DNA of 64,000 nucleotides, taken from NCBI GenBank assembly GCA_046329115.1, contig JAXLVG010000010.1, forward strand, positions 84,482 to 148,481, written 5' to 3'. Shown here piece after piece: positions 33,110 through 42,041 of the stretch (positions within the stretch are counted from its first letter, which is position 1; every line of letters starts with the position of its first letter). Source of the stretch: Flavobacteriales bacterium. Lineage in GTDB: Bacteria > Bacteroidota > Bacteroidia > Flavobacteriales_F > PHOS-HE28. The notes under the pieces are model-generated. The model ran no database searches and was not told the origin of the DNA. It saw only the letters and a list, made by a program, of their open reading frames with translations. The position numbers and the translations under genes were made by a program.

Positions 33110-33181
33110 TTGGCTCCGTAGGCGCTCGGACCGTAGCTTCCGACCGTGCCATCTAACTTCGCGGCCCTTTCAGAAGCCGCG

Positions 33182-36100
33182 ATGGACAAGCGTTTCCCGC
33201 AGTACGACGAGCTCGACCTGCCCAAGGTCGCCGAGGAGGTGTTGACCCAGTGGGAGGCCGAGGACACCTTCGGCCAGAGCCTGCAGCTGCGCAAGGACGC
33301 GCCGCCCTTCGTGTTCTACGAGGGCCCGCCCAGCGCCAACGGCCTGCCCGGCATCCACCACGTGATGGCGCGCACCATCAAGGACATCTTCTGCCGCTAC
33401 CAGACGCAGAAGGGCCACCGCGTGGACCGCAAGGCCGGCTGGGACACGCACGGCCTGCCGATCGAGCTGGGTGTGGAGAAGGAGCTCGGCATCACCAAGG
33501 AGGACATCGGCAAGACCATCAGCATCGAGGAGTACAATGCCGCGTGCCGCAAGGCCGTGATGCGCTACACCGATGTGTGGAACGACCTCACCAAGCGCAT
33601 CGGCTTCTGGCTCGACCTGGAGAAGCCCTACGTCACCTACCACACGAAGTACATCGAGAGCGTATGGCACCTCTTGAAGCAGCTCTACGACCAGGATCTG
33701 CTGTACAAGGGCTACACCATCCAACCGTACAGCCCCGCTGCGGGTACGGGCCTTTCCTCGCACGAACTGAACCAGCCCGGCACCTACAAGCCGGTGAAGG
33801 ACACCAGCGTGGTGGCGCAGTTCAAGGTGAAGCGTGATGCGAACAGTGAGTGGCTGTTCAAGGACGCGTTCGGGGAGGTCTTCATCCTCGCGTGGACGAC
33901 CACACCGTGGACCCTGCCCAGCAACTGCGCGCTCACCGTGGGCCCCAAGCTGGACTATGTGCGGGTGAAAACCTTTAACCCGTACACGCATGCGCCACAG
34001 ACCGTGGTGCTGGCGAAGGCCCGGTTGAACGCGTACTTCAAGCCGGACAATCAGAACGCTTCGTTCGAGGACTACAAGAAGGACGGCAAGAACATCCCCT
34101 GGAGCATCCTCGATGAGTTCTACGGCCACCAGCTGGAAGGCGTCCGCTACGAGCAATTGCTGCCCTACGCCCAGCCCGAAGGCGGCGATGCCTTCAAGGT
34201 CATCGGCGGGGATTTCGTCACCACGGAGGACGGCACCGGCGTGGTGCACACGGCGCCCAGCTTCGGTGCGGATGACCAACGCGTGGCGCGCCAGCACGGC
34301 ATCGGTTCGCTGACGCTTGTGGACCTGCGCGGCCGCTTCAAGCCCGAGGTCACGGACTTCGCGGGCGAGTACGTGAAGGCCGAGTACCTCAACGCGGAGG
34401 AGCAGGCCGCTGAGGCGAAGAAGCAGGGGCGCGACAAGTACCTCAGCGTGGACGAGCGCATCGCCATCAAGCTGAAGACCGAAGGCCGCGCCTTCAAGGT
34501 GGAGAAGTACGAGCACAACTACCCGCACTGCTGGCGGACCGACAAGCCCGTGCTCTACTACCCGCTCGACAGCTGGTTCGTGCGTGTGACCGCGAAGAAG
34601 GACCGGTTGATCGCGCTCAACAAGACCATCACCTGGAAGCCCGAGAGCACCGGCACCGGCCGCTTCGGCAACTGGCTGGAGAACCTGCAGGACTGGAACC
34701 TCTCGCGCAGCCGCTACTGGGGCATCCCGCTGCCCATCTGGCGCACGGAGGACGGCAGCGAGGAGCTCTGCATCGGTTCGTTGAAACAACTGAAGGAGGA
34801 GATCGCCCGCAGCGTACAGGCAGGCATCCTGCCTGCCGATCCGTACGCTGCGTTCGATCCACAAGACATGAGCGATGCCAACTACGACCGCATCGACATC
34901 CACCGTCCGTACGTTGACAACATCGTGCTGGTGAGCCCCAGCGGCAAGCCCATGCACCGCGAGACCGACCTGATCGACGTATGGTTCGACAGCGGCGCGA
35001 TGCCCTACGCGCAGTGGCACTATCCCTTCGAGAACGAGGCCACCTTCAAGGAGAAGTTCCCAGCAGCCTTCATCGCCGAGGGCGTGGACCAGACGCGCGG
35101 CTGGTTCTACACGTTGCACGCCATCGCCACGCTCACGCAGGACAGCGTGGCCTACCGGACCGTGGTGAGCAACGGCCTGGTGCTCGACAAGGTGGGCCAG
35201 AAGATGAGCAAGCGCCTGGGCAACGCCGTTGATCCGTTCAAGACACTGGACCAGTACGGTGCCGATGCCGTGCGTTGGTACATGATCAGCAACGCTTCGC
35301 CGTGGGACAACCTGAAGTTCGACGCCGAGGGCATCACCGAGGTGCAACGCAAGTTCTTCCGCGCGCTCTTCAACACCTACAACTTCTTCGCGCTGTACGC
35401 GAACATCGATGGATTCGACGGGAAGGGCGAGGCGATGTTGACGGAGAGCGACCGCTGGATCCTCTCGCGCCTCAACAGCGTGCTGAAGCTGGCCGACGCG
35501 AGCTACGCCGATTACGAGCCCACCATCGCCGCGCGCGCCATCCAGGATTTCGTGGTGGAGGACCTCAGCAACTGGTACGTGCGCCTCAATCGCCGTCGCT
35601 TCTGGAAAGGTGAGCTCGGCGCCGACAAGAACGCGGCGTTCCGCACGTTGCACCGCTGCCTGGAAGTGATCGCGATGCTGAGCGCGCCCATCGCGCCCTT
35701 CTTCAGTGATCGCCTGTACCGGGACCTGAAGGGCACGAGCGTTCACCTGAGCGATTGGCCGAAGCACGACGAGTCACTCATCGACACCGAGCTCGAGCAG
35801 CGCACCGCGCTCGCACAGAAGCTCACCTCGCTCGTGCTCAGCATCCGCAAGAAGGAAGGCCACCGCGTGCGCCAGCCCTTGCAGAAGATGCTGGTGCCCG
35901 TGACCGACGCAGCGATACGCACGCGCCTGGAGGCCATCCGCGACCTCGTGCTGAGCGAAGTGAACGTGAAGGAGCTGGTGATCCTCGACGCCAGCGAGAG
36001 CAAGCTCACCAAGAAGATCAAGCCCGACTTCAAGAAGCTGGGCGCCCGCATGGGCAAATTGATGAAGAGCGTGGCCGCTGCGGTGAACGCGTTCTCGCAA

Positions 36101-36565
36101 GCGCAGATCGCCGAATTGGAGGCGAACGGCAGCATGAAGCTGAGCGTGGAGGGTCAGGAGGTGGAGCTGCTGCGCGACGACGTGGAGATCACCGCCGAGA
36201 ACGTGCCGGGGCTGAGCGTGGCCAGCGATGGGGCGCTTACCGTAGCGCTCGACATCACCCTCACCGATGAGCTGGTGCAGGAGGGCATTGCCCGCGAGCT
36301 GGTGAGCCGGATCCAGACCCTTCGGAAGGAGAGCGGCTTCGAAGTGACGGACCGTGTACAGCTGCACATCCATGACAACGGCGATCCGCGCCTTCGGTCG
36401 GCGGTGGTGGGCCACGCCTCGTGGATACTGGCGGAGACCCTGGCCACAACCCCTGTGGATCAAGTACTTGTGAGCACCCTGCCAGCGGAAGGGGCCGGGG
36501 TGCACGAGGTTGAGCTGGACGAGACCTTGCGCTGCGGGCTGATGCTGGTGCGTTCCGTGAACTGA
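33182..36565 (+). CDS. ileS: isoleucine--tRNA ligase
   Basis: ORF 33146..36565 (GTG). The conserved N-terminus begins MDKRFPQYDELDLPKVAEEVL at ATG 33182. HIGH-type motif (PSANGLPGIHH) and KMSKR-type motif (KMSKRLGN). ~1127 aa, Bacteroidota-type long IleS. Confidence 0.95.
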   Translation: MDKRFPQYDELDLPKVAEEVLTQWEAEDTFGQSLQLRKDAPPFVFYEGPPSANGLPGIHHVMARTIKDIFCRYQTQKGHRVDRKAGWDTHGLPIELGVEKELGITKEDIGKTISIEEYNAACRKAVMRYTDVWNDLTKRIGFWLDLEKPYVTYHTKYIESVWHLLKQLYDQDLLYKGYTIQPYSPAAGTGLSSHELNQPGTYKPVKDTSVVAQFKVKRDANSEWLFKDAFGEVFILAWTTTPWTLPSNCALTVGPKLDYVRVKTFNPYTHAPQTVVLAKARLNAYFKPDNQNASFEDYKKDGKNIPWSILDEFYGHQLEGVRYEQLLPYAQPEGGDAFKVIGGDFVTTEDGTGVVHTAPSFGADDQRVARQHGIGSLTLVDLRGRFKPEVTDFAGEYVKAEYLNAEEQAAEAKKQGRDKYLSVDERIAIKLKTEGRAFKVEKYEHNYPHCWRTDKPVLYYPLDSWFVRVTAKKDRLIALNKTITWKPESTGTGRFGNWLENLQDWNLSRSRYWGIPLPIWRTEDGSEELCIGSLKQLKEEIARSVQAGILPADPYAAFDPQDMSDANYDRIDIHRPYVDNIVLVSPSGKPMHRETDLIDVWFDSGAMPYAQWHYPFENEATFKEKFPAAFIAEGVDQTRGWFYTLHAIATLTQDSVAYRTVVSNGLVLDKVGQKMSKRLGNAVDPFKTLDQYGADAVRWYMISNASPWDNLKFDAEGITEVQRKFFRALFNTYNFFALYANIDGFDGKGEAMLTESDRWILSRLNSVLKLADASYADYEPTIAARAIQDFVVEDLSNWYVRLNRRRFWKGELGADKNAAFRTLHRCLEVIAMLSAPIAPFFSDRLYRDLKGTSVHLSDWPKHDESLIDTELEQRTALAQKLTSLVLSIRKKEGHRVRQPLQKMLVPVTDAAIRTRLEAIRDLVLSEVNVKELVILDASESKLTKKIKPDFKKLGARMGKLMKSVAAAVNAFSQAQIAELEANGSMKLSVEGQEVELLRDDVEITAENVPGLSVASDGALTVALDITLTDELVQEGIARELVSRIQTLRKESGFEVTDRVQLHIHDNGDPRLRSAVVGHASWILAETLATTPVDQVLVSTLPAEGAGVHEVELDETLRCGLMLVRSVN

Positions 36566-36613
36566 GGGCCTGAAGCCTCTATATTCGCGGATCCTTTCAA
36601 AAAGGGGTACGCC

Positions 36614-37516
36614 ATGGCCAAGAAACCCGCACCCAAAAAGGCCGCCAAGCCTGTGAAGAAGGCGGCCACGAAGCCGGTCAAGAAGGCGGCACCGGCGAAG
36701 AAGCCTGCTGCCAAGAAGCCGGTATCGAAGCCCAAGCCGAAGCCTGCGGCGAAGAAACCGGTGAAGGCCGCGGCCAAGCCTGTTGCGCCCAAGAAGGTCG
36801 CCAAGCCGGCCCCCCCGAAGAAGGCAGCGCCCGCGCCGAAGAAGGCCGTGGCCAAACCCGCGCCCAAGTCGGCACCGAAAGCGGCACCGAAGCCCGTTGC
36901 GAAAGCACCGGCACCCGCCCCGAAGGCACCGGCCAAGCCGGCTCCCGCCGCCAAACCGGCGCCGGCCCCGAAGCCTGTCGCCACCAAGCCTGTAGCAGAG
37001 AAACCCGTAGCGAAAGCCACCGTGAAGAAGGAAGAGACCTCGAAGACCGCGGCCAAGCCGCTCGTTACGCAGACCAGCGCCCCCATGATCCACAAGGCAG
37101 CGCCGATGGTCAAGAAGCAGGTGAGCACGCTGGAGTCCTCCGGCAAGGAGCGCTACAGCGACGCCGAGCTGGATGAGTTCAAGAAGATCATCCTGTCCAA
37201 GCTGGAGGAGGCCCGTAAGGATTACGACCTGCTGAAGCAGACGCTGGCGAACACGGACAACAACGGCACGGAGGACACGAGCCCCTCGTTCAAGATGATC
37301 GAGGACGGCAGCGAGACCCTGAGCCGCGAGGAGACCGCCCAGCTGGCCGCCCGCCAGGAGAAGTTCATCAAGCACTTGGAGGACGCGCTGCTGCGCATCC
37401 GCAACAAGACCTACGGGATCTGCCGCGTCACCGGCCGCCTGATCAGCAAGGAGCGCCTGCGCCTCGTGCCGCACGCCACCCTCAGCATCGAGGCGAAGCA
37501 GCAGATGAGCAGCTAG
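36614..37516 (+). CDS. DksA/TraR family C4-type zinc-finger regulator with a ~150 aa histone-H1-like Lys/Ala/Pro-rich N-terminal extension
   Basis: The C-terminal 135 aa (ERYSDAELDEFKKIILSKLEEA...NKTYGICRVTGRLISKERLRLVPHATLSIEAK) form the DksA/TraR domain found downstream of ileS in Bacteroidota. The upstream in-frame region 36614..37084 encodes AKKP/AKPA repeats with GC3-biased codons. Alternative starts lie at 37085 and 37106. Confidence 0.65.
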   Translation: MAKKPAPKKAAKPVKKAATKPVKKAAPAKKPAAKKPVSKPKPKPAAKKPVKAAAKPVAPKKVAKPAPPKKAAPAPKKAVAKPAPKSAPKAAPKPVAKAPAPAPKAPAKPAPAAKPAPAPKPVATKPVAEKPVAKATVKKEETSKTAAKPLVTQTSAPMIHKAAPMVKKQVSTLESSGKERYSDAELDEFKKIILSKLEEARKDYDLLKQTLANTDNNGTEDTSPSFKMIEDGSETLSREETAQLAARQEKFIKHLEDALLRIRNKTYGICRVTGRLISKERLRLVPHATLSIEAKQQMSS

Positions 37517-37538
37517 GGCGCACCGCACCGGCGAAGCC

Positions 37539-38306
37539 TTGAAGCGCGCGCTGATCGTTGTCCTGCTGGTCATCGTGGCCGACCAGGTCCTGAAGATCTG
37601 GGTGAAGACCCATTTCCAACTGGGCGAGTACATCCGCCTGTTCGGACCGGACAGCAACAAGGCCTACCTGCAGTTCGTGGAGAACGACGGCATGGCCTTC
37701 GGCCTGCGCTTCGGTGGTTCCGCGGGCAAGCCCCTGCTCACCCTGTTCCGCATCGTGGCCGTGGTGGTGATCGGCATGATCATGCGCCAGATGGCGCGCC
37801 AGGGGCGCAGCACCTGGCAGGTGGTGAGCATGGCCCTGATCTTCGCCGGCGCATTGGGCAACATCATCGACAGCGCCTTCTACGGGATCCTGTTCGACAA
37901 GGGGACGGTATACGATCCGGTGACGGACACGGCCATCGGCTACAAGGGACTGGCCGCCTTCGGTCAACCGGGCTATGCATCGTTCCTGCACGGCTCGGTG
38001 GTGGACATGTTCTACTTCCCGCTCTGGCAAGGGCGGTTCCCGGACTGGCTGCCGATCTGGGGTGGCACCTACTTCGAGTTCTTCAAGCCCGTGTTCAACA
38101 TCGCCGATGCGGCGATCAGTGTGGGCGTTGTGCTGATGCTGCTGACCAGCGGGCACCGCAGCGAGCCGGAGCCCGCGAGCGCGGCCGCACCGGACAAGGG
38201 GACAACACCTGCTGACGCGCTGGCTCCGGCTGCCGATGCGCACAGCGGGCAGGTATCCGACAGTGACCGCACGGACCGGGACCCCGGCGCGGTCGACCCG
38301 AAATGA
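37539..38306 (+). CDS. lspA: signal peptidase II (lipoprotein signal peptidase)
   Basis: TTG start per the track. Conserved LspA motifs (GNIIDSAFYG, FNIADAAISVG). Sits in the ileS-dksA-lspA arrangement. Pro/Ala-rich acidic C-terminal tail. Confidence 0.85.
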   Translation: MKRALIVVLLVIVADQVLKIWVKTHFQLGEYIRLFGPDSNKAYLQFVENDGMAFGLRFGGSAGKPLLTLFRIVAVVVIGMIMRQMARQGRSTWQVVSMALIFAGALGNIIDSAFYGILFDKGTVYDPVTDTAIGYKGLAAFGQPGYASFLHGSVVDMFYFPLWQGRFPDWLPIWGGTYFEFFKPVFNIADAAISVGVVLMLLTSGHRSEPEPASAAAPDKGTTPADALAPAADAHSGQVSDSDRTDRDPGAVDPK

Positions 38307-38380: not shown

Positions 38381-39388
38381 TCAGGCGACCGCCTGCCGCA
38401 TCCCCACCAACCCCTTCTTTACCAACAGTTCTGCTATCTGCACCGCATTGGTCGCAGCGCCTTTTCGGAGGTTGTCCGCCACGATCCACAGGTTGAGGGT
38501 GCGCGGCTGGGTCTCGTCGCGGCGGATGCGGCCCACGAACACCGCGTCGCGGTCGTGCGCGATCAGCGGCATGGGGTACTCGTCCTTCGCGGGGTCGTCC
38601 AGCACCACCACGCCCGGTGCTTCGCGCAGCAGGCGGCGGGCCTCCTCGATCTCGAATTCGCGCGTGCACTCGATGTTCACCGCCTCGCTGTGGCCGCCGG
38701 TCACGGGCACGCGCACGGCCGTGGCGGTAACGCGGATCGCGGGGTCCAGGATCTTCTTCGTCTCGTTCACCAGCTTCATCTCCTCCTTCGTGTACCCGTT
38801 CTCGATGAACACGTCGCAGCGCGGGATCACGTTGCGGTCGATCGGGAAGGGATAGGCCATGTCGCCGCTGATGCCCTTGCGCTCGTTCTCCAGCTGCTGC
38901 ACGGCCTTCATGCCGGTGCCGGTGACGGCCTGGTAGGTGCTTACGATCACGCGTTCAACGCCGAAGGCCTTGTGTAGCGGCGCCAGGGCCATAACCAGTT
39001 GGATGGTGCTGCAGTTCGGGTTGGCGATGATGCGGTCGTCAGCCATCAGGACCTCACCGTTCACCTCGGGCACCACGAGCTTCTTGTCGGGGAACATGCG
39101 CCAGGCACTGCTGTTGTCCACCACGGTGCAGCCCACCTCGGCGAAGCGGGGTGCCCACTCCAGCGAGGTGGTGCCACCAGCGGAGAACAGGGCGATATCG
39201 GGCCGGGCCGCGATGGCCGCTTCCATGCCGATCACGGAAACGTCCATGCCACGGAAGCGGACCACCTTGCCGGCGCTCCGATCGCTGGCCACGGCCAGCA
39301 GTTCATCCACAGGGAAGCGGCGCTCCTCGAGCACCTTGAGCATGACCCCACCGACCAGCCCGGTGGCACCGACGACAGCGACCTTCAT
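38381..39388 (-). CDS. asd: aspartate-semialdehyde dehydrogenase
   Basis: 335 aa. MKVAVVGATGLVGGVMLKVLEERRFP (NAD-binding) and the active-site Cys region (NPNCSTIQLVMALAPL). Confidence 0.92.
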   Translation of the reverse strand: MKVAVVGATGLVGGVMLKVLEERRFPVDELLAVASDRSAGKVVRFRGMDVSVIGMEAAIAARPDIALFSAGGTTSLEWAPRFAEVGCTVVDNSSAWRMFPDKKLVVPEVNGEVLMADDRIIANPNCSTIQLVMALAPLHKAFGVERVIVSTYQAVTGTGMKAVQQLENERKGISGDMAYPFPIDRNVIPRCDVFIENGYTKEEMKLVNETKKILDPAIRVTATAVRVPVTGGHSEAVNIECTREFEIEEARRLLREAPGVVVLDDPAKDEYPMPLIAHDRDAVFVGRIRRDETQPRTLNLWIVADNLRKGAATNAVQIAELLVKKGLVGMRQAVA

Positions 39389-39449
39389 GATGTCCGGTTA
39401 ACGTTCAACGATGGCCGAAAGTACTACCTTGCCTGCCACGCTGAAGTCC

Positions 39450-42041
39450 ATGATCCGCGCCACTTTCCGGGCATCCTTGGGTCCGCTCGCCGCACTGCTC
39501 GCCTTGGCGGCAACGGCCCAGGTGGCCGATGATTTCACCGACAACGACTTCACCAACGCGCCCACGTGGAGCGGCAACGATGCGCTCTTCACCTGTGTGG
39601 GCGGACAGCTGCGCAGCAACAGCCCCGGCGCAGCGAACTACCACCTGAGCACACCCAGTACACAAGCCACGCTGGCCCGGTGGGAGTTCTTCGTGAACCT
39701 GAAGTTCAGCACCAGCGGCGCCAACTACGCGGACGTATACCTGATGAGCAGCGCGGCCGACCTGGCCAGCGGGGTGAACGGCTACTTCGTGCGCATCGGC
39801 GGTACGGCCGACCGCGTGGAGCTGTTCCGCAGCGACGGAGGCTCGGCCAGCAGCCTTGTGGCCAGCGCGGACGGGATCGTGAACAGCAGCAGCGACAACC
39901 CCTTCCGGATCCGCGTGGAACGCGATGCGGCGGACCTCTGGACCCTGTGGACCGATGATGGCAACACGGGCATATGGACCGTTGCCGGCAGCGTGACCGA
40001 CGCCACCCATGGCAGCTGCACCCACTTCGGCATCCGCATCGAACAGAGCACCGCGGCCAGTGCGGTGAACAACCACTTCTTCGACGACGTGAGCGTGGGG
40101 CCGATCCCGGTGGACCTGACGCCGCCGACGGTGGTGAGCGTGACGGCCACCAGCGCCACCAACGTGGACGTGGTGTTCAGCGAGCCCCTGAACGGAGCGG
40201 CGCTCGGCAGCTTCGACATCATCCCGTTCATCGGTGTGAGCGCTTCCGTGCTGGATGGCACGGACCCCACGCTTGTGCATGTGACGCCGGCCATCGCGCT
40301 CACCAGTGGGAACACGTACAGCCTGCTGACCAGCGGTGCAGAGGATCCGGCCGGCAATGCTGCAGCGAGCGCCTCCACGGACTTCGCGTGGATCGTGCCG
40401 GCCGTAGCGGGCTTCCGCGATGTGGTGATCAATGAACTGATGCCCGACCCTTCCCCGGTCGTTGGTCTGCCGGATGCCGAGTTCGTGGAGCTGTACAACC
40501 CCGGCACCGAGGCCTATGCGCTTGCCGGCTGGACCTTCACCGACGGGAGCACCACGGCCACCCTGCCCAGCTTCCTGCTCGGCCCCGGGGCCTACTGCAT
40601 CATCGTGGATGACGCGGTGGCCGCGCTCTTCAGCGCGTTCCCGAACGTGGTGGTGGTCAGCAGCTTCCCCAGCATGAACAACGACGGCGACCCGCTGGAA
40701 CTGCGGAACGCGGGGGGCGTGCTGATCGACGCAGTGACCTACGACCTCACCTGGTACCAGGATGCGTTGAAGTCCCTGGGGGGCTGGTCCTTGGAACAGG
40801 TGGACCCCACCACGCCGTGCAGTGCGGCGGTGAACTGGCGCGCCAGCAATGCCGGCGCAGGTGGCACCCCGTCCGCGCAGAACAGTGTGTTCGCCATCGT
40901 TCCGGACAACACGGCGCCGGCGCTGATCTCCGTGCTGGTGAACAGCGCCACCTCGATCGAGCTCGTGTTCGACGAGGCGATGAACACCGCCAGCCTGGCC
41001 GCCGGTTCCTACGTGATCACCCCAACTGTGGGCGTGAACAACGCCATCGCGAACGGGACAACCAACGTGGTGCTCACGCTCGCCGCACCGCTCACCGTCG
41101 GTCAGCTTTACACCATCACGGTGGGCGGGGTTACCGATTGTCCCGGCAACGGCATCGGCGCGGCGAACGCGGCCACTTTCGCACTGCCGGAGCCTGTACT
41201 GCCGGGCGATGTGGTGATCAACGAAGTGCTGTACGACCCGCCCACCGGCGGGAGCGATCTGGTGGAACTGTACAACCGGAGCCAGAAGGTGCTGAGCCTG
41301 GCAGGCTGGAAACTGGCCAATGAAACGAATGGCGTCATCGACGATGTGTCCGTGATCACCAACAACGCGTTCCTGCTGATGCCCGGGGAATACGTACTGA
41401 TCACGGAGGACGCCGCCAACATCGCCCAGGCCTATCCCGGTTCGCGCACGGACCGGTTCGTTCAAGCGGACATGCCGGGCTACAACAATGGCGAAGGTGT
41501 GGTGGTGCTCCAGGATCCCCTGGGCGACACGCTGGACCGCTTCGCCTACAATGACGACCTGCACTTCGAACTGCTGAACAGCACCGAAGGCGTGAGCCTT
41601 GAGCGTGTGAGCCCGGACCGCCCCGCGGACGATCCCACCAACTGGCACAGCGCATCGGAACAGGTGGGCTATGCCACACCGGGCTATCGCAACTCACAAT
41701 ACACGCCCGACCCGATCGCCAGTGGTGCGCTGAACATCGATCCCCGCATCTTCTCGCCGGACAACGATGGCTTCCAGGACCTGATCACCATCGGCTACCG
41801 GTTCGACGCCCCGGGGTTCACGGGCACCCTGTCCATCTTCGACGTGGCCGGGCGCGAGGTGGTGAAGCTGCTGGACAACGAGCTGCTTGGCACTTCAGGG
41901 GCGGTGAGCTGGAACGGGATCATGAGCGGCGGAGAACTGGCCCGGATGGGCGCCTACGTGGTGGTGTTCGAGGCCTTCGACCTGAACGGGAACGTGGAGC
42001 GGTTCCGCGAGACCATCGCCCTGGCCCAAAAGCTGAACTGA
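39450..42041 (+). CDS. secreted protein with two lamin-tail domains (LTD) and Ig-like domains, T9SS type B (gliding-motility-associated) C-terminal domain
   Basis: ORF 39411..42041. Signal peptide from ATG 39450 (MIRATFRASLGPLAALLALAATAQ). Two LTD signatures (VVINELMPDPSP...EFVELYNPG and VVINEVLYDPPTGGSDLVELYNRS). C-terminus IFSPDNDGFQDLITIGYRF...TLSIFDVAGREVVKL matches the T9SS type B CTD. Confidence 0.75.
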   Translation: MIRATFRASLGPLAALLALAATAQVADDFTDNDFTNAPTWSGNDALFTCVGGQLRSNSPGAANYHLSTPSTQATLARWEFFVNLKFSTSGANYADVYLMSSAADLASGVNGYFVRIGGTADRVELFRSDGGSASSLVASADGIVNSSSDNPFRIRVERDAADLWTLWTDDGNTGIWTVAGSVTDATHGSCTHFGIRIEQSTAASAVNNHFFDDVSVGPIPVDLTPPTVVSVTATSATNVDVVFSEPLNGAALGSFDIIPFIGVSASVLDGTDPTLVHVTPAIALTSGNTYSLLTSGAEDPAGNAAASASTDFAWIVPAVAGFRDVVINELMPDPSPVVGLPDAEFVELYNPGTEAYALAGWTFTDGSTTATLPSFLLGPGAYCIIVDDAVAALFSAFPNVVVVSSFPSMNNDGDPLELRNAGGVLIDAVTYDLTWYQDALKSLGGWSLEQVDPTTPCSAAVNWRASNAGAGGTPSAQNSVFAIVPDNTAPALISVLVNSATSIELVFDEAMNTASLAAGSYVITPTVGVNNAIANGTTNVVLTLAAPLTVGQLYTITVGGVTDCPGNGIGAANAATFALPEPVLPGDVVINEVLYDPPTGGSDLVELYNRSQKVLSLAGWKLANETNGVIDDVSVITNNAFLLMPGEYVLITEDAANIAQAYPGSRTDRFVQADMPGYNNGEGVVVLQDPLGDTLDRFAYNDDLHFELLNSTEGVSLERVSPDRPADDPTNWHSASEQVGYATPGYRNSQYTPDPIASGALNIDPRIFSPDNDGFQDLITIGYRFDAPGFTGTLSIFDVAGREVVKLLDNELLGTSGAVSWNGIMSGGELARMGAYVVVFEAFDLNGNVERFRETIALAQKLN

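Follow-up and report, generated by a model that had tools for sequence, protein, structure and literature searches.

A DksA-like protein of Flavobacteriales with a polycationic N-terminal tail of histone H1-like composition

The locus considered here lies in a 64,000-nucleotide stretch of contig JAXLVG010000010.1 from a Flavobacteriales bacterium (the whole stretch is hereafter called the window, and positions refer to it), where a gene for a DksA-like protein between ileS and lspA is preceded in frame by some 150 codons rich in alanine, lysine and proline (AKP). It raises the question of whether this stretch is translated as part of the protein and, if so, what such a polycation may do on a transcription factor. 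An earlier note, made from the letters of the window, had read the two parts as one protein, a DksA/TraR zinc-finger regulator fused to a 150-residue histone H1-like domain that would tether it to DNA or the nucleoid. DksA-family factors are usually seen as small, freely diffusing proteins which act only via the secondary channel of RNA polymerase. The sigma factors and promoters of the Bacteroidota are unusual, initiation in the phylum is not led by Shine-Dalgarno sequences, stringent-response control of transcription is poorly understood there, and to our knowledge DksA function in this phylum is essentially unstudied. The features on which the first part of the answer depends are the following (aa, amino acids; ORF, open reading frame; nt, nucleotides).

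36614..37516, plus strand: complete ORF of 300 aa and stop, consisting of tail, linker and C1-type DksA-like core.
36614..37057, plus strand: tail (aa 1-148), a variable polycationic A/K/P-rich low-complexity region, from composition and AlphaFold2 disorder.
37058..37132, plus strand: conserved linker P149-L173, PLVTQTSAPMIHKAAPMVKKQVSTL, from protein alignment and junction sequences.
37085..37108, plus strand: internal ATGs M158 (37085-37087) and M165 (37106-37108), the alternative "short" starts used by NCBI annotation in orthologues.
36580..36587, plus strand: putative Bacteroidota sigma-A -7 element TATATTCG (consensus TAHHTTTG), 26 nt upstream of the ATG.
36460..37146, minus strand: antisense G/A/F-rich ORF of 228 aa, a by-product of the AKP codon composition and not a gene.

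We hold it to be nearly certain that the 300-aa reading from ATG 36614 is the correct one. Composition alone cannot settle translation, because the window has 65% GC and, within the tail stretch, stops are also lacking in sense frame +2 and in two of the antisense frames. The GC content by codon position across 36614..37084 was 0.64, 0.60 and 0.79, respectively, with position 3 highest in the sense frame only, and the choice of K, A and P codons in the tail matches that of the neighbouring genes (AAG 80%, GCC+GCG 76%, CCC+CCG 84%). The codon periodicity to which the earlier note appealed is thus present, but it does not distinguish the sense frame from the antisense ORF, since the third codon positions of the two coincide; GC3 was therefore dropped as a discriminator against that ORF, and the stops found in low-GC relatives were used instead.

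The relatives were drawn from 80 Bacteroidota loci, fetched from GTDB species representatives. The extension was sought among them and was found as a long in-frame K-rich N-terminal region (120-290 aa) in 13 of the 80, close relatives included. In the low-GC relatives (loci of 35-43% GC, with tails of 27-48% GC), the sense frame contains no stops in comparison to 8 to 17 in shuffles, and all five of the alternative frames carry stops, which leaves only the sense frame open. GC3 in these relatives goes down to 0.12-0.31, tracking genome GC, while GC1 stays high, a pattern to be expected if the A/K/P codons are kept by selection and the wobble position follows genome composition. The antisense ORF reported in the earlier note does exist in the window, where it is open because AKP codons cannot give antisense stops; as a gene it was rejected, the antisense frames being interrupted by stops in the low-GC relatives.

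The start and the body of the extension behave as coding sequence in close relatives as well. The MAKK start (ATG-GCn-AAR-AAR) is invariant in the window and in the five closest GTDB relatives, with third positions varying synonymously. In pairwise alignments made on DNA only, the gap runs between the extension and those of five relatives were multiples of three in 36 of 36 cases, and the mismatch fraction was 0.48 to 0.60 at codon position 3 in comparison to 0.30 to 0.44 at positions 1 and 2. The linker, with the 25-aa consensus PLVTQxxxPxxPxxxPxVKKQVSTL, is conserved at the protein level in close extended relatives and in related metagenomic proteins; it lies upstream of the "short" start or spans it, and it is confined to the close, extended relatives of the window clade, the canonical 127-aa proteins having no linker. 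In addition, the NCBI protein P0007 (142 aa) is exactly residues 201-342 of a 342-aa ORF in L001 (2404-3432 of JAEUSU010000005.1), and the short annotations are therefore truncations. All of this bears out the earlier claim that the AKP region is translated and fused to the DksA/TraR protein.

Three observations on the N-termini of relatives may be added. In the low-GC Flavobacteriales L010 (2470-2523) and L014 (2347-2400), the open frame runs 18 codons past the MAKK start to an upstream ATG (MGRGRSGAFTINQKPLRP-MAKK...); MAKK is taken as the start by analogy, and the upstream ATG is possible. In P0051, P0052, P0059 and P0049 (76-79% core identity) the linker is kept and the N-termini, of 40-100 aa, are basic and not AKP-rich; they could represent an intermediate or degenerate form of the tail. 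P0033 (214 aa, ENA, from a 1442-nt contig) has a ClpS-like N-terminus (PF02617) where the AKP tail would be, attached directly to the PLVTQ linker and the DksA core; this may reflect a genuine alternative fusion or an assembly chimera.

The Bacteroidota -7 element has been described as TAHHTTTG with its final G at -5, and A is enriched at -14 to -11 in the initiation regions of this phylum (PMC6847099). At the present locus a CTATATT[C/T]GCG box, which matches this element, is invariant 23-28 nt before the ATG in the window and in L001-L005. The relaxed motif TAnnTT[CT]G has its sole copy within 36300..37600 there and occurs 8 times on the plus strand of the window; a scan with it found no -7 box before 37085 or 37106. 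ATG 36614 is preceded by a run of A (-11 to -15), as in Bacteroidota initiation regions. Judged from these motifs, transcription would start near 36592 and leave a leader of about 22 nt. A scan for sigma-70 promoters and terminators gave nothing meaningful on the plus strand, which is expected because Bacteroidota use a different consensus.

The composition of the tail is extreme. Residues 1-156 contain 29% A, 28% K and 23% P, with a net charge of +41 and an isoelectric point (pI) of 11.0, and the lysine share is 35% in the first 80 residues in comparison to 21% in aa 81-156, the latter with PAPAPK-type runs. AlphaFold2 (121 aligned sequences) gave aa 1-180 no secondary structure, at a predicted local distance difference test score (pLDDT) of about 46-60, and the tail is thus predicted to be intrinsically disordered. 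The AKKPAPKK and AKPVKK motifs of the earlier note are present ([AP]PKK four times, KPA seven times, AKP seven times; [ST]PKK not at all in the protein), but the repetition is compositional and not exact, since the arrays returned by Tandem Repeats Finder were limited to one 24-nt unit (2.1 copies) and two weaker ones. The same output rules out recent tandem expansion of DNA as the origin of the tail. The alternative of a structured RNA was also rejected, as an Rfam scan of 36400..37300 at E <= 1 gave a single spurious miRNA match. The size of about 150 residues given earlier fits the 148 AKP-rich residues, and in comparison to the 127-aa protein the full extension is about 173 aa with the 25-aa linker.

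With regard to ancestry, Pfam gave no match in residues 1-173 at E <= 1, neither the winged-helix globular domain of histone H1 (PF00538) nor an HU fold was found in the same residues, and when the tail (aa 1-148) was used by itself as the query, 8000 word-sharing candidates yielded no homologue at E <= 1e-3. Because the tail-alone search found no homologues, the assignment to the AlgP, Hlp and H1 type can be supported as composition only, and "histone-H1-like" is a resemblance in composition, not descent. Judged from general knowledge and PMC3643593, the H1-like proteins (AlgP, the C-terminal tail of HupB/Hlp, HupS, Hc1/Hc2) and the H1 C-terminal domain (CTD) have in common about 28-35% K, 25-30% A and 10-23% P, and the tail is like them in its APKK/AKP/KPA-type motifs, its predicted disorder and its very high pI. 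The difference is that it sits on a transcription factor and not on an architectural DNA-binding fold, and that homology is not detectable.

Across the 13 tails, from loci of 35-65% GC, the sequence and length vary freely, while the K fraction (0.27-0.35) and the net charge per residue (+0.25 to +0.33) stay within narrow limits, with almost no Arg, Asp or Glu; in AT-rich genomes, Ala and Pro drop and Val, Ser and Thr increase. As charge and K share are steady despite this turnover, the comparison argues that charge density and disorder, rather than sequence, are what is under selection in the tail.

The C-terminal part of the protein contains two further features.

37133..37513, plus strand: DksA-like core, aa 174-300, the equivalent of the canonical Bacteroidota 127-aa protein.
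37421..37495, plus strand: C1-type motif C270-x2-T273-x17-S291-x2-A294, from sequence and alignment invariants.

The core matches Pfam PF01258 (zf-dskA_traR) over residues 266-296, with an E value of 4.5e-7 and 30.2 bits against a cutoff of 24.9. The NCBIfam DksA equivalog models match at E values of 1e-11 to 1e-12, far under their cutoffs, which places the protein within the family but not among the E. coli-type equivalogs. The sequence matches in PDB are Chlamydia DksA (6ptg, 4e-8), P. aeruginosa DksA2 (4ijj, 9e-7) and E. coli DksA (1tjl, 2e-3). In the AlphaFold2 model, two coiled-coil helices (183-212 and 238-263, pLDDT 85-88) are joined by a 25-residue tip loop (pLDDT 51-63), the C-terminal globular part being less confident, and the top six Foldseek matches against PDB were all DksA or DksA2 (4ijj, 1tjl, 7khi, 5vsw, 6ptg), with probability 0.99-1.00 and target TM-score 0.53-0.59.

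The zinc-finger label of the earlier note holds for the family and fails for the finger itself. The zinc-independent C2/C1 class has been defined as CxxS/T-x17-C/S/TxxA (PMC9126822), and the protein has the C1 motif in full, C270-R-V-T273, 17 residues and S291-I-E-A294, where a C4 finger would read CxxC-x17-CxxC, one of the four zinc-finger cysteines being left; by its sequence, the core is of the zinc-independent C1 type and has no true zinc finger. The tip carries an acidic cluster, E230-D231-G-S-E234, of which D231, G232 and S233 show little or no variation among 121 relatives. In E. coli DksA, the acidic tip residues are D71 and D74 of the DxxDxA motif. HMMER aligned D231-G-S-E234-T-L to DEADLA (a DxxDxA-type tip) of DksA2, and the alignment with E. 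coli DksA places the residues differently. The E. coli DksA residues of ppGpp site 2 are R91, L95, K98, R129 and K139 (PMC7676912), and by alignment R247, F251 and K295 correspond to R91, L95 and K139, respectively.

Three sets of proteins serve for comparison with the whole. The canonical Bacteroidota protein of about 127 aa (Tannerella, Bacteroides, Zobellia, Leeuwenhoekiella; L079, L061, L056, L050) is 60-75% identical to residues 174-300 and shares the C1 motif, the DDTSPxFK...EDGS tip region and the gene order, but it starts MAEKxKTRYSD and has neither linker nor tail. Chlamydia trachomatis DksA (6ptg) and P. aeruginosa DksA2 (4ijj), to which the core is most similar in sequence and fold among solved structures, are alike in having a one- or two-cysteine motif without zinc and differ in having no polycationic tail.

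The third and nearest precedent, and the one that a full-text literature search turned up for this architecture, is DdbA (SCO2075) of Streptomyces coelicolor, in which an H1-like DNA-binding N-terminus stands on a DksA-like C-terminus; its isolated N-terminal part bound and condensed DNA, the C-terminal part showed no DNA binding, the ddbA mutant was altered in nucleoid condensation and supercoiling responses, overexpression suppresses a relA phenotype, and its authors found orthologues in streptomycetes only (PMC3643593). Comparing the window protein with SCO2075 by its published description, both have an H1-like tail and a DksA-like domain in one ORF, with a tail length that varies among orthologues, and by gene number ddbA occupies the same ileS-dksA-lsp slot, SCO2076 being isoleucyl-tRNA synthetase (PMC3276577) and SCO2074 being lsp (PMC4941574). 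They differ in that DdbA keeps a C4 zinc finger and equivalents of D71/D74, whereas the window protein is C1-type with D231 and E234; in that DdbA has S/T-A/T-A-K-K pentapeptides in place of the proline-rich AKP, KPA and APKK found here; and in the longer tail (148-173 aa) and the phylum. The Bacteroidota tail and the DdbA tail are best read as convergent, because most Bacteroidota orthologues are tail-less, the tailed lineages are scattered, and the DdbA core is C4 with another repeat type. The "DdbA" of Chlamydia (CTL0322) was set aside as a name collision, unrelated to DksA.

From these comparisons we propose that a single 300-aa protein would be transcribed from its own Bacteroidota-type promoter (-7 box 36580-36587) and translated from ATG 36614. 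Its coiled coil would, by analogy with DksA, enter the secondary channel of RNA polymerase and modulate initiation, binding to the channel being expected from family membership. The polycation of about 148 aa may bind DNA non-specifically through electrostatic contacts and so concentrate the DksA module on the nucleoid, near transcribing or promoter-bound RNA polymerase, and perhaps it also adds to DNA compaction, as for DdbA; DNA binding and tethering by the tail are suggested by the DdbA precedent and by general knowledge of H1-CTD-like tails. We consider the combined picture, a C1-type DksA core on RNA polymerase with a DNA-binding tail that tethers it to the nucleoid, to be fairly probable.

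Several points weigh against this picture. On the side of the core, ppGpp site 2 is changed at two of its five positions (K98 to H254 and R129 to V285), and the tip loop exceeds that of E. coli DksA, is unusual in its length and was modelled with low confidence. Complementation of E. coli dksA with the DksA of Chlamydia, the nearest relative of solved structure, failed (PMC9126822), so that canonical DksA activity is not assured. On the side of the tail, the tail-only search gave no homology to a DNA-binding domain, the K-poor and PA-rich second half could be a spacer rather than a binder, and polycationic disordered regions can also bind RNA, polyphosphate and acidic proteins. Our literature searches found no paper on the Bacteroidota form and no experiments on it or its orthologues.

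The alternative that draws most on these points takes the tail as real but not mainly a DNA tether: it may bind polyphosphate, RNA or ribosomes, form condensates with RNA polymerase, or act as a spacer or entropic bristle which tunes access to the secondary channel. A tail of pure low complexity and predicted disorder, with only 21% K in its second half, would suit such roles; the H1-like AlgP has been linked to polyphosphate granules, which it is reported to organise (PMC9239181), and in Bacteroides Rho it is a disordered region that brings about condensation (PMC13269538). Against this, DdbA, the sole experimentally studied protein of this architecture, binds and condenses DNA via its tail, and the charge of the tail, about +0.3 per residue, is what H1-CTD-like DNA binders typically have. 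We judge a role other than tethering to be unlikely, with a real chance all the same.

It is rather improbable, in our view, that there are two isoforms, the 300-aa protein and a short DksA (about 136-143 aa) begun at M158 or M165, which would provide tethered and free pools. In-frame ATGs do stand at 37085 and 37106, the latter with A at -11, -12 and -14 in keeping with the A-enrichment rule (PMC6847099); Met is also present here in some close relatives, and NCBI annotation pipelines choose internal starts. The internal Met is, however, missing in L003, L005, L006, L008, L022, P0014 and P0015, and a short isoform therefore cannot be a conserved feature; moreover, no promoter box or terminator lies between the two parts, and the linker upstream of the internal Met codons is conserved as protein. 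A start at 37085 or 37106, the outcome that the earlier note had named as fatal to the fusion, finds no backing either in the conservation of these Met codons or in a -7 box upstream of them, and the view that takes the AKP region for an untranslated leader or spacer, rich in GC and open by chance, is very improbable indeed: a genome of 65% GC commonly has long frames free of stops, other frames of the tail stretch are likewise open and NCBI calls products of 136-143 aa for many relatives, but homologous K-rich tails of 120-280 codons show no stop at 35-43% GC against an expectation of 8-17, both the MAKK start codon and the promoter box are conserved, and gaps in threes, third-position mismatches and a linker conserved at the protein level all speak for translation.

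The preferred reading, a tailed 300-aa protein, can be placed in the phylum through the 80 loci. About 65 of them encode proteins of 123-141 aa starting MAEKxKTRYSD, so that the norm of about 125 aa downstream of ileS, from which the earlier note took its departure, was confirmed. Close relatives in a protein search with the core (85-93% identical) are from Flavobacteriales metagenome-assembled genomes (MAGs), and they are called either, mostly by NCBI, as 136-143 aa or, mostly by JGI and ENA, as 200-251 aa with N-termini rich in K/A/P. An exhaustive HMMER search with the core among 1.84 billion representatives of 50%-identity clusters gave 190 proteins at E <= 1e-30. An N-terminal extension of at least 60 aa was seen in at least 73 of the best 150 of these 190, a lower bound since the anchoring of the census failed for 57 of the 150, and a measure of diversity, not frequency, as 50%-identity clustering inflates the share of variable tails in comparison to conserved short proteins. 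Among the extended representatives, 61 have at least 20% Lys and 60 have a net charge of at least +15. In the Chitinophagales, a 393-aa protein from a Flavipsychrobacter sp. MAG (MBL7683502.1) is an example, and there is also a 354-aa protein of a "Bacteroidia bacterium"; the 90%-identity clusters of these two full-length forms also hold truncated annotations of near-identical genes, OSZ79622.1 (128 aa, "molecular chaperone DnaK") and MBA2582276.1 (134 aa).

Neighbour-joining (NJ) trees were built for the DksA core and, as a species proxy, for the IleS C-terminus; both are shallow and without support values. In them the tailed lineages fall into at least four patches, interspersed with tail-less lineages, and L017 is a tail-less member nested among tailed. 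A single gain of the tail is not supported by them, and the pattern indicates several gains and/or losses. In L016 (2602-3426), the extension is broken by a run of N (X in translation); the K-rich repetitive coding region appears to cause a masking or assembly gap, and such sequence may be under-assembled in MAGs.

The gene lies close to both of its neighbours.

33146..36565, plus strand: ileS (isoleucyl-tRNA synthetase), the upstream neighbour, with Pfam PF00133, PF08264 and PF19302 (tRNA-synt_1, Anticodon_1).
37539..38306, plus strand: lspA (signal peptidase II), the downstream neighbour, with Pfam PF01252 (Peptidase_A8).

The spacer from the ileS stop to ATG 36614 is 48 nt, and lspA starts 22 nt past the stop codon of the 300-aa ORF. 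The ileS gene is upstream of the dksA-like gene in 70 of the 80 Bacteroidota loci and lspA is downstream in 75. A literature search showed that ileS of B. subtilis adjoins ylyA, which we take to encode a DksA-like RNA-polymerase-binding protein. Chlamydial dksA is directly upstream of lspA (PMC9126822). The ileS-dksA-lspA slot is old.

Some observations on the surrounding genes are recorded here. The ileS ORF as listed begins with GTG, 12 codons (33146-33181) before an ATG whose product (MDKRFPQY...) resembles the conserved N-terminus. LspA is 255 aa long, its Peptidase_A8 match stops at residue 203, and its last 50 or so residues (38149-38303) form an acidic Pro/Ala/Asp/Ser-rich low-complexity tail, SGHRSEPEPASAAAPDKGTTPADALAPAADAHSGQVSDSDRTDRDPGAVDPK, of charge opposite to that of the adjacent DksA tail. 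Further downstream, 39411-42041 on the plus strand encodes a protein of 876 aa that combines two Lamin Tail Domains with a Big_5 Ig-like domain; it starts 22 nt beyond the start of the divergent asd (38381..39388, minus strand) and is unrelated to the present finding.

The design itself is known from Streptomyces DdbA, and full-length sequences are already in the databases under generic names; what is apparently new is a seemingly convergent variant in a second phylum, one that is widespread, often truncated by annotation and not described in the literature that was searched. The NCBI records of many orthologues drop the whole tail, as where 142 aa are called for the 342-aa ORF, and domain-based surveys thus miss the architecture. 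We put forward tentatively, at somewhat less than an even chance, that H1-CTD-like tails have been added repeatedly to the ileS/lspA-linked DksA-like gene, in several Bacteroidota lineages (Flavobacteriales, Chitinophagales and others, with dozens of 50%-identity clusters) and independently in Streptomyces, and make up a widespread and largely mis-annotated class of nucleoid-tethered regulators. The tails of 120-330 residues in diverse Bacteroidota and the separate origin of this design at the same gene position in Streptomyces together suggest a recurrent selective advantage of anchoring to the nucleoid or to another polyanion. If this is true, such a class would couple chromosome compaction or local DNA concentration to the control of transcription initiation, and the protein offers a concrete handle on stringent-response transcription control in the Bacteroidota.

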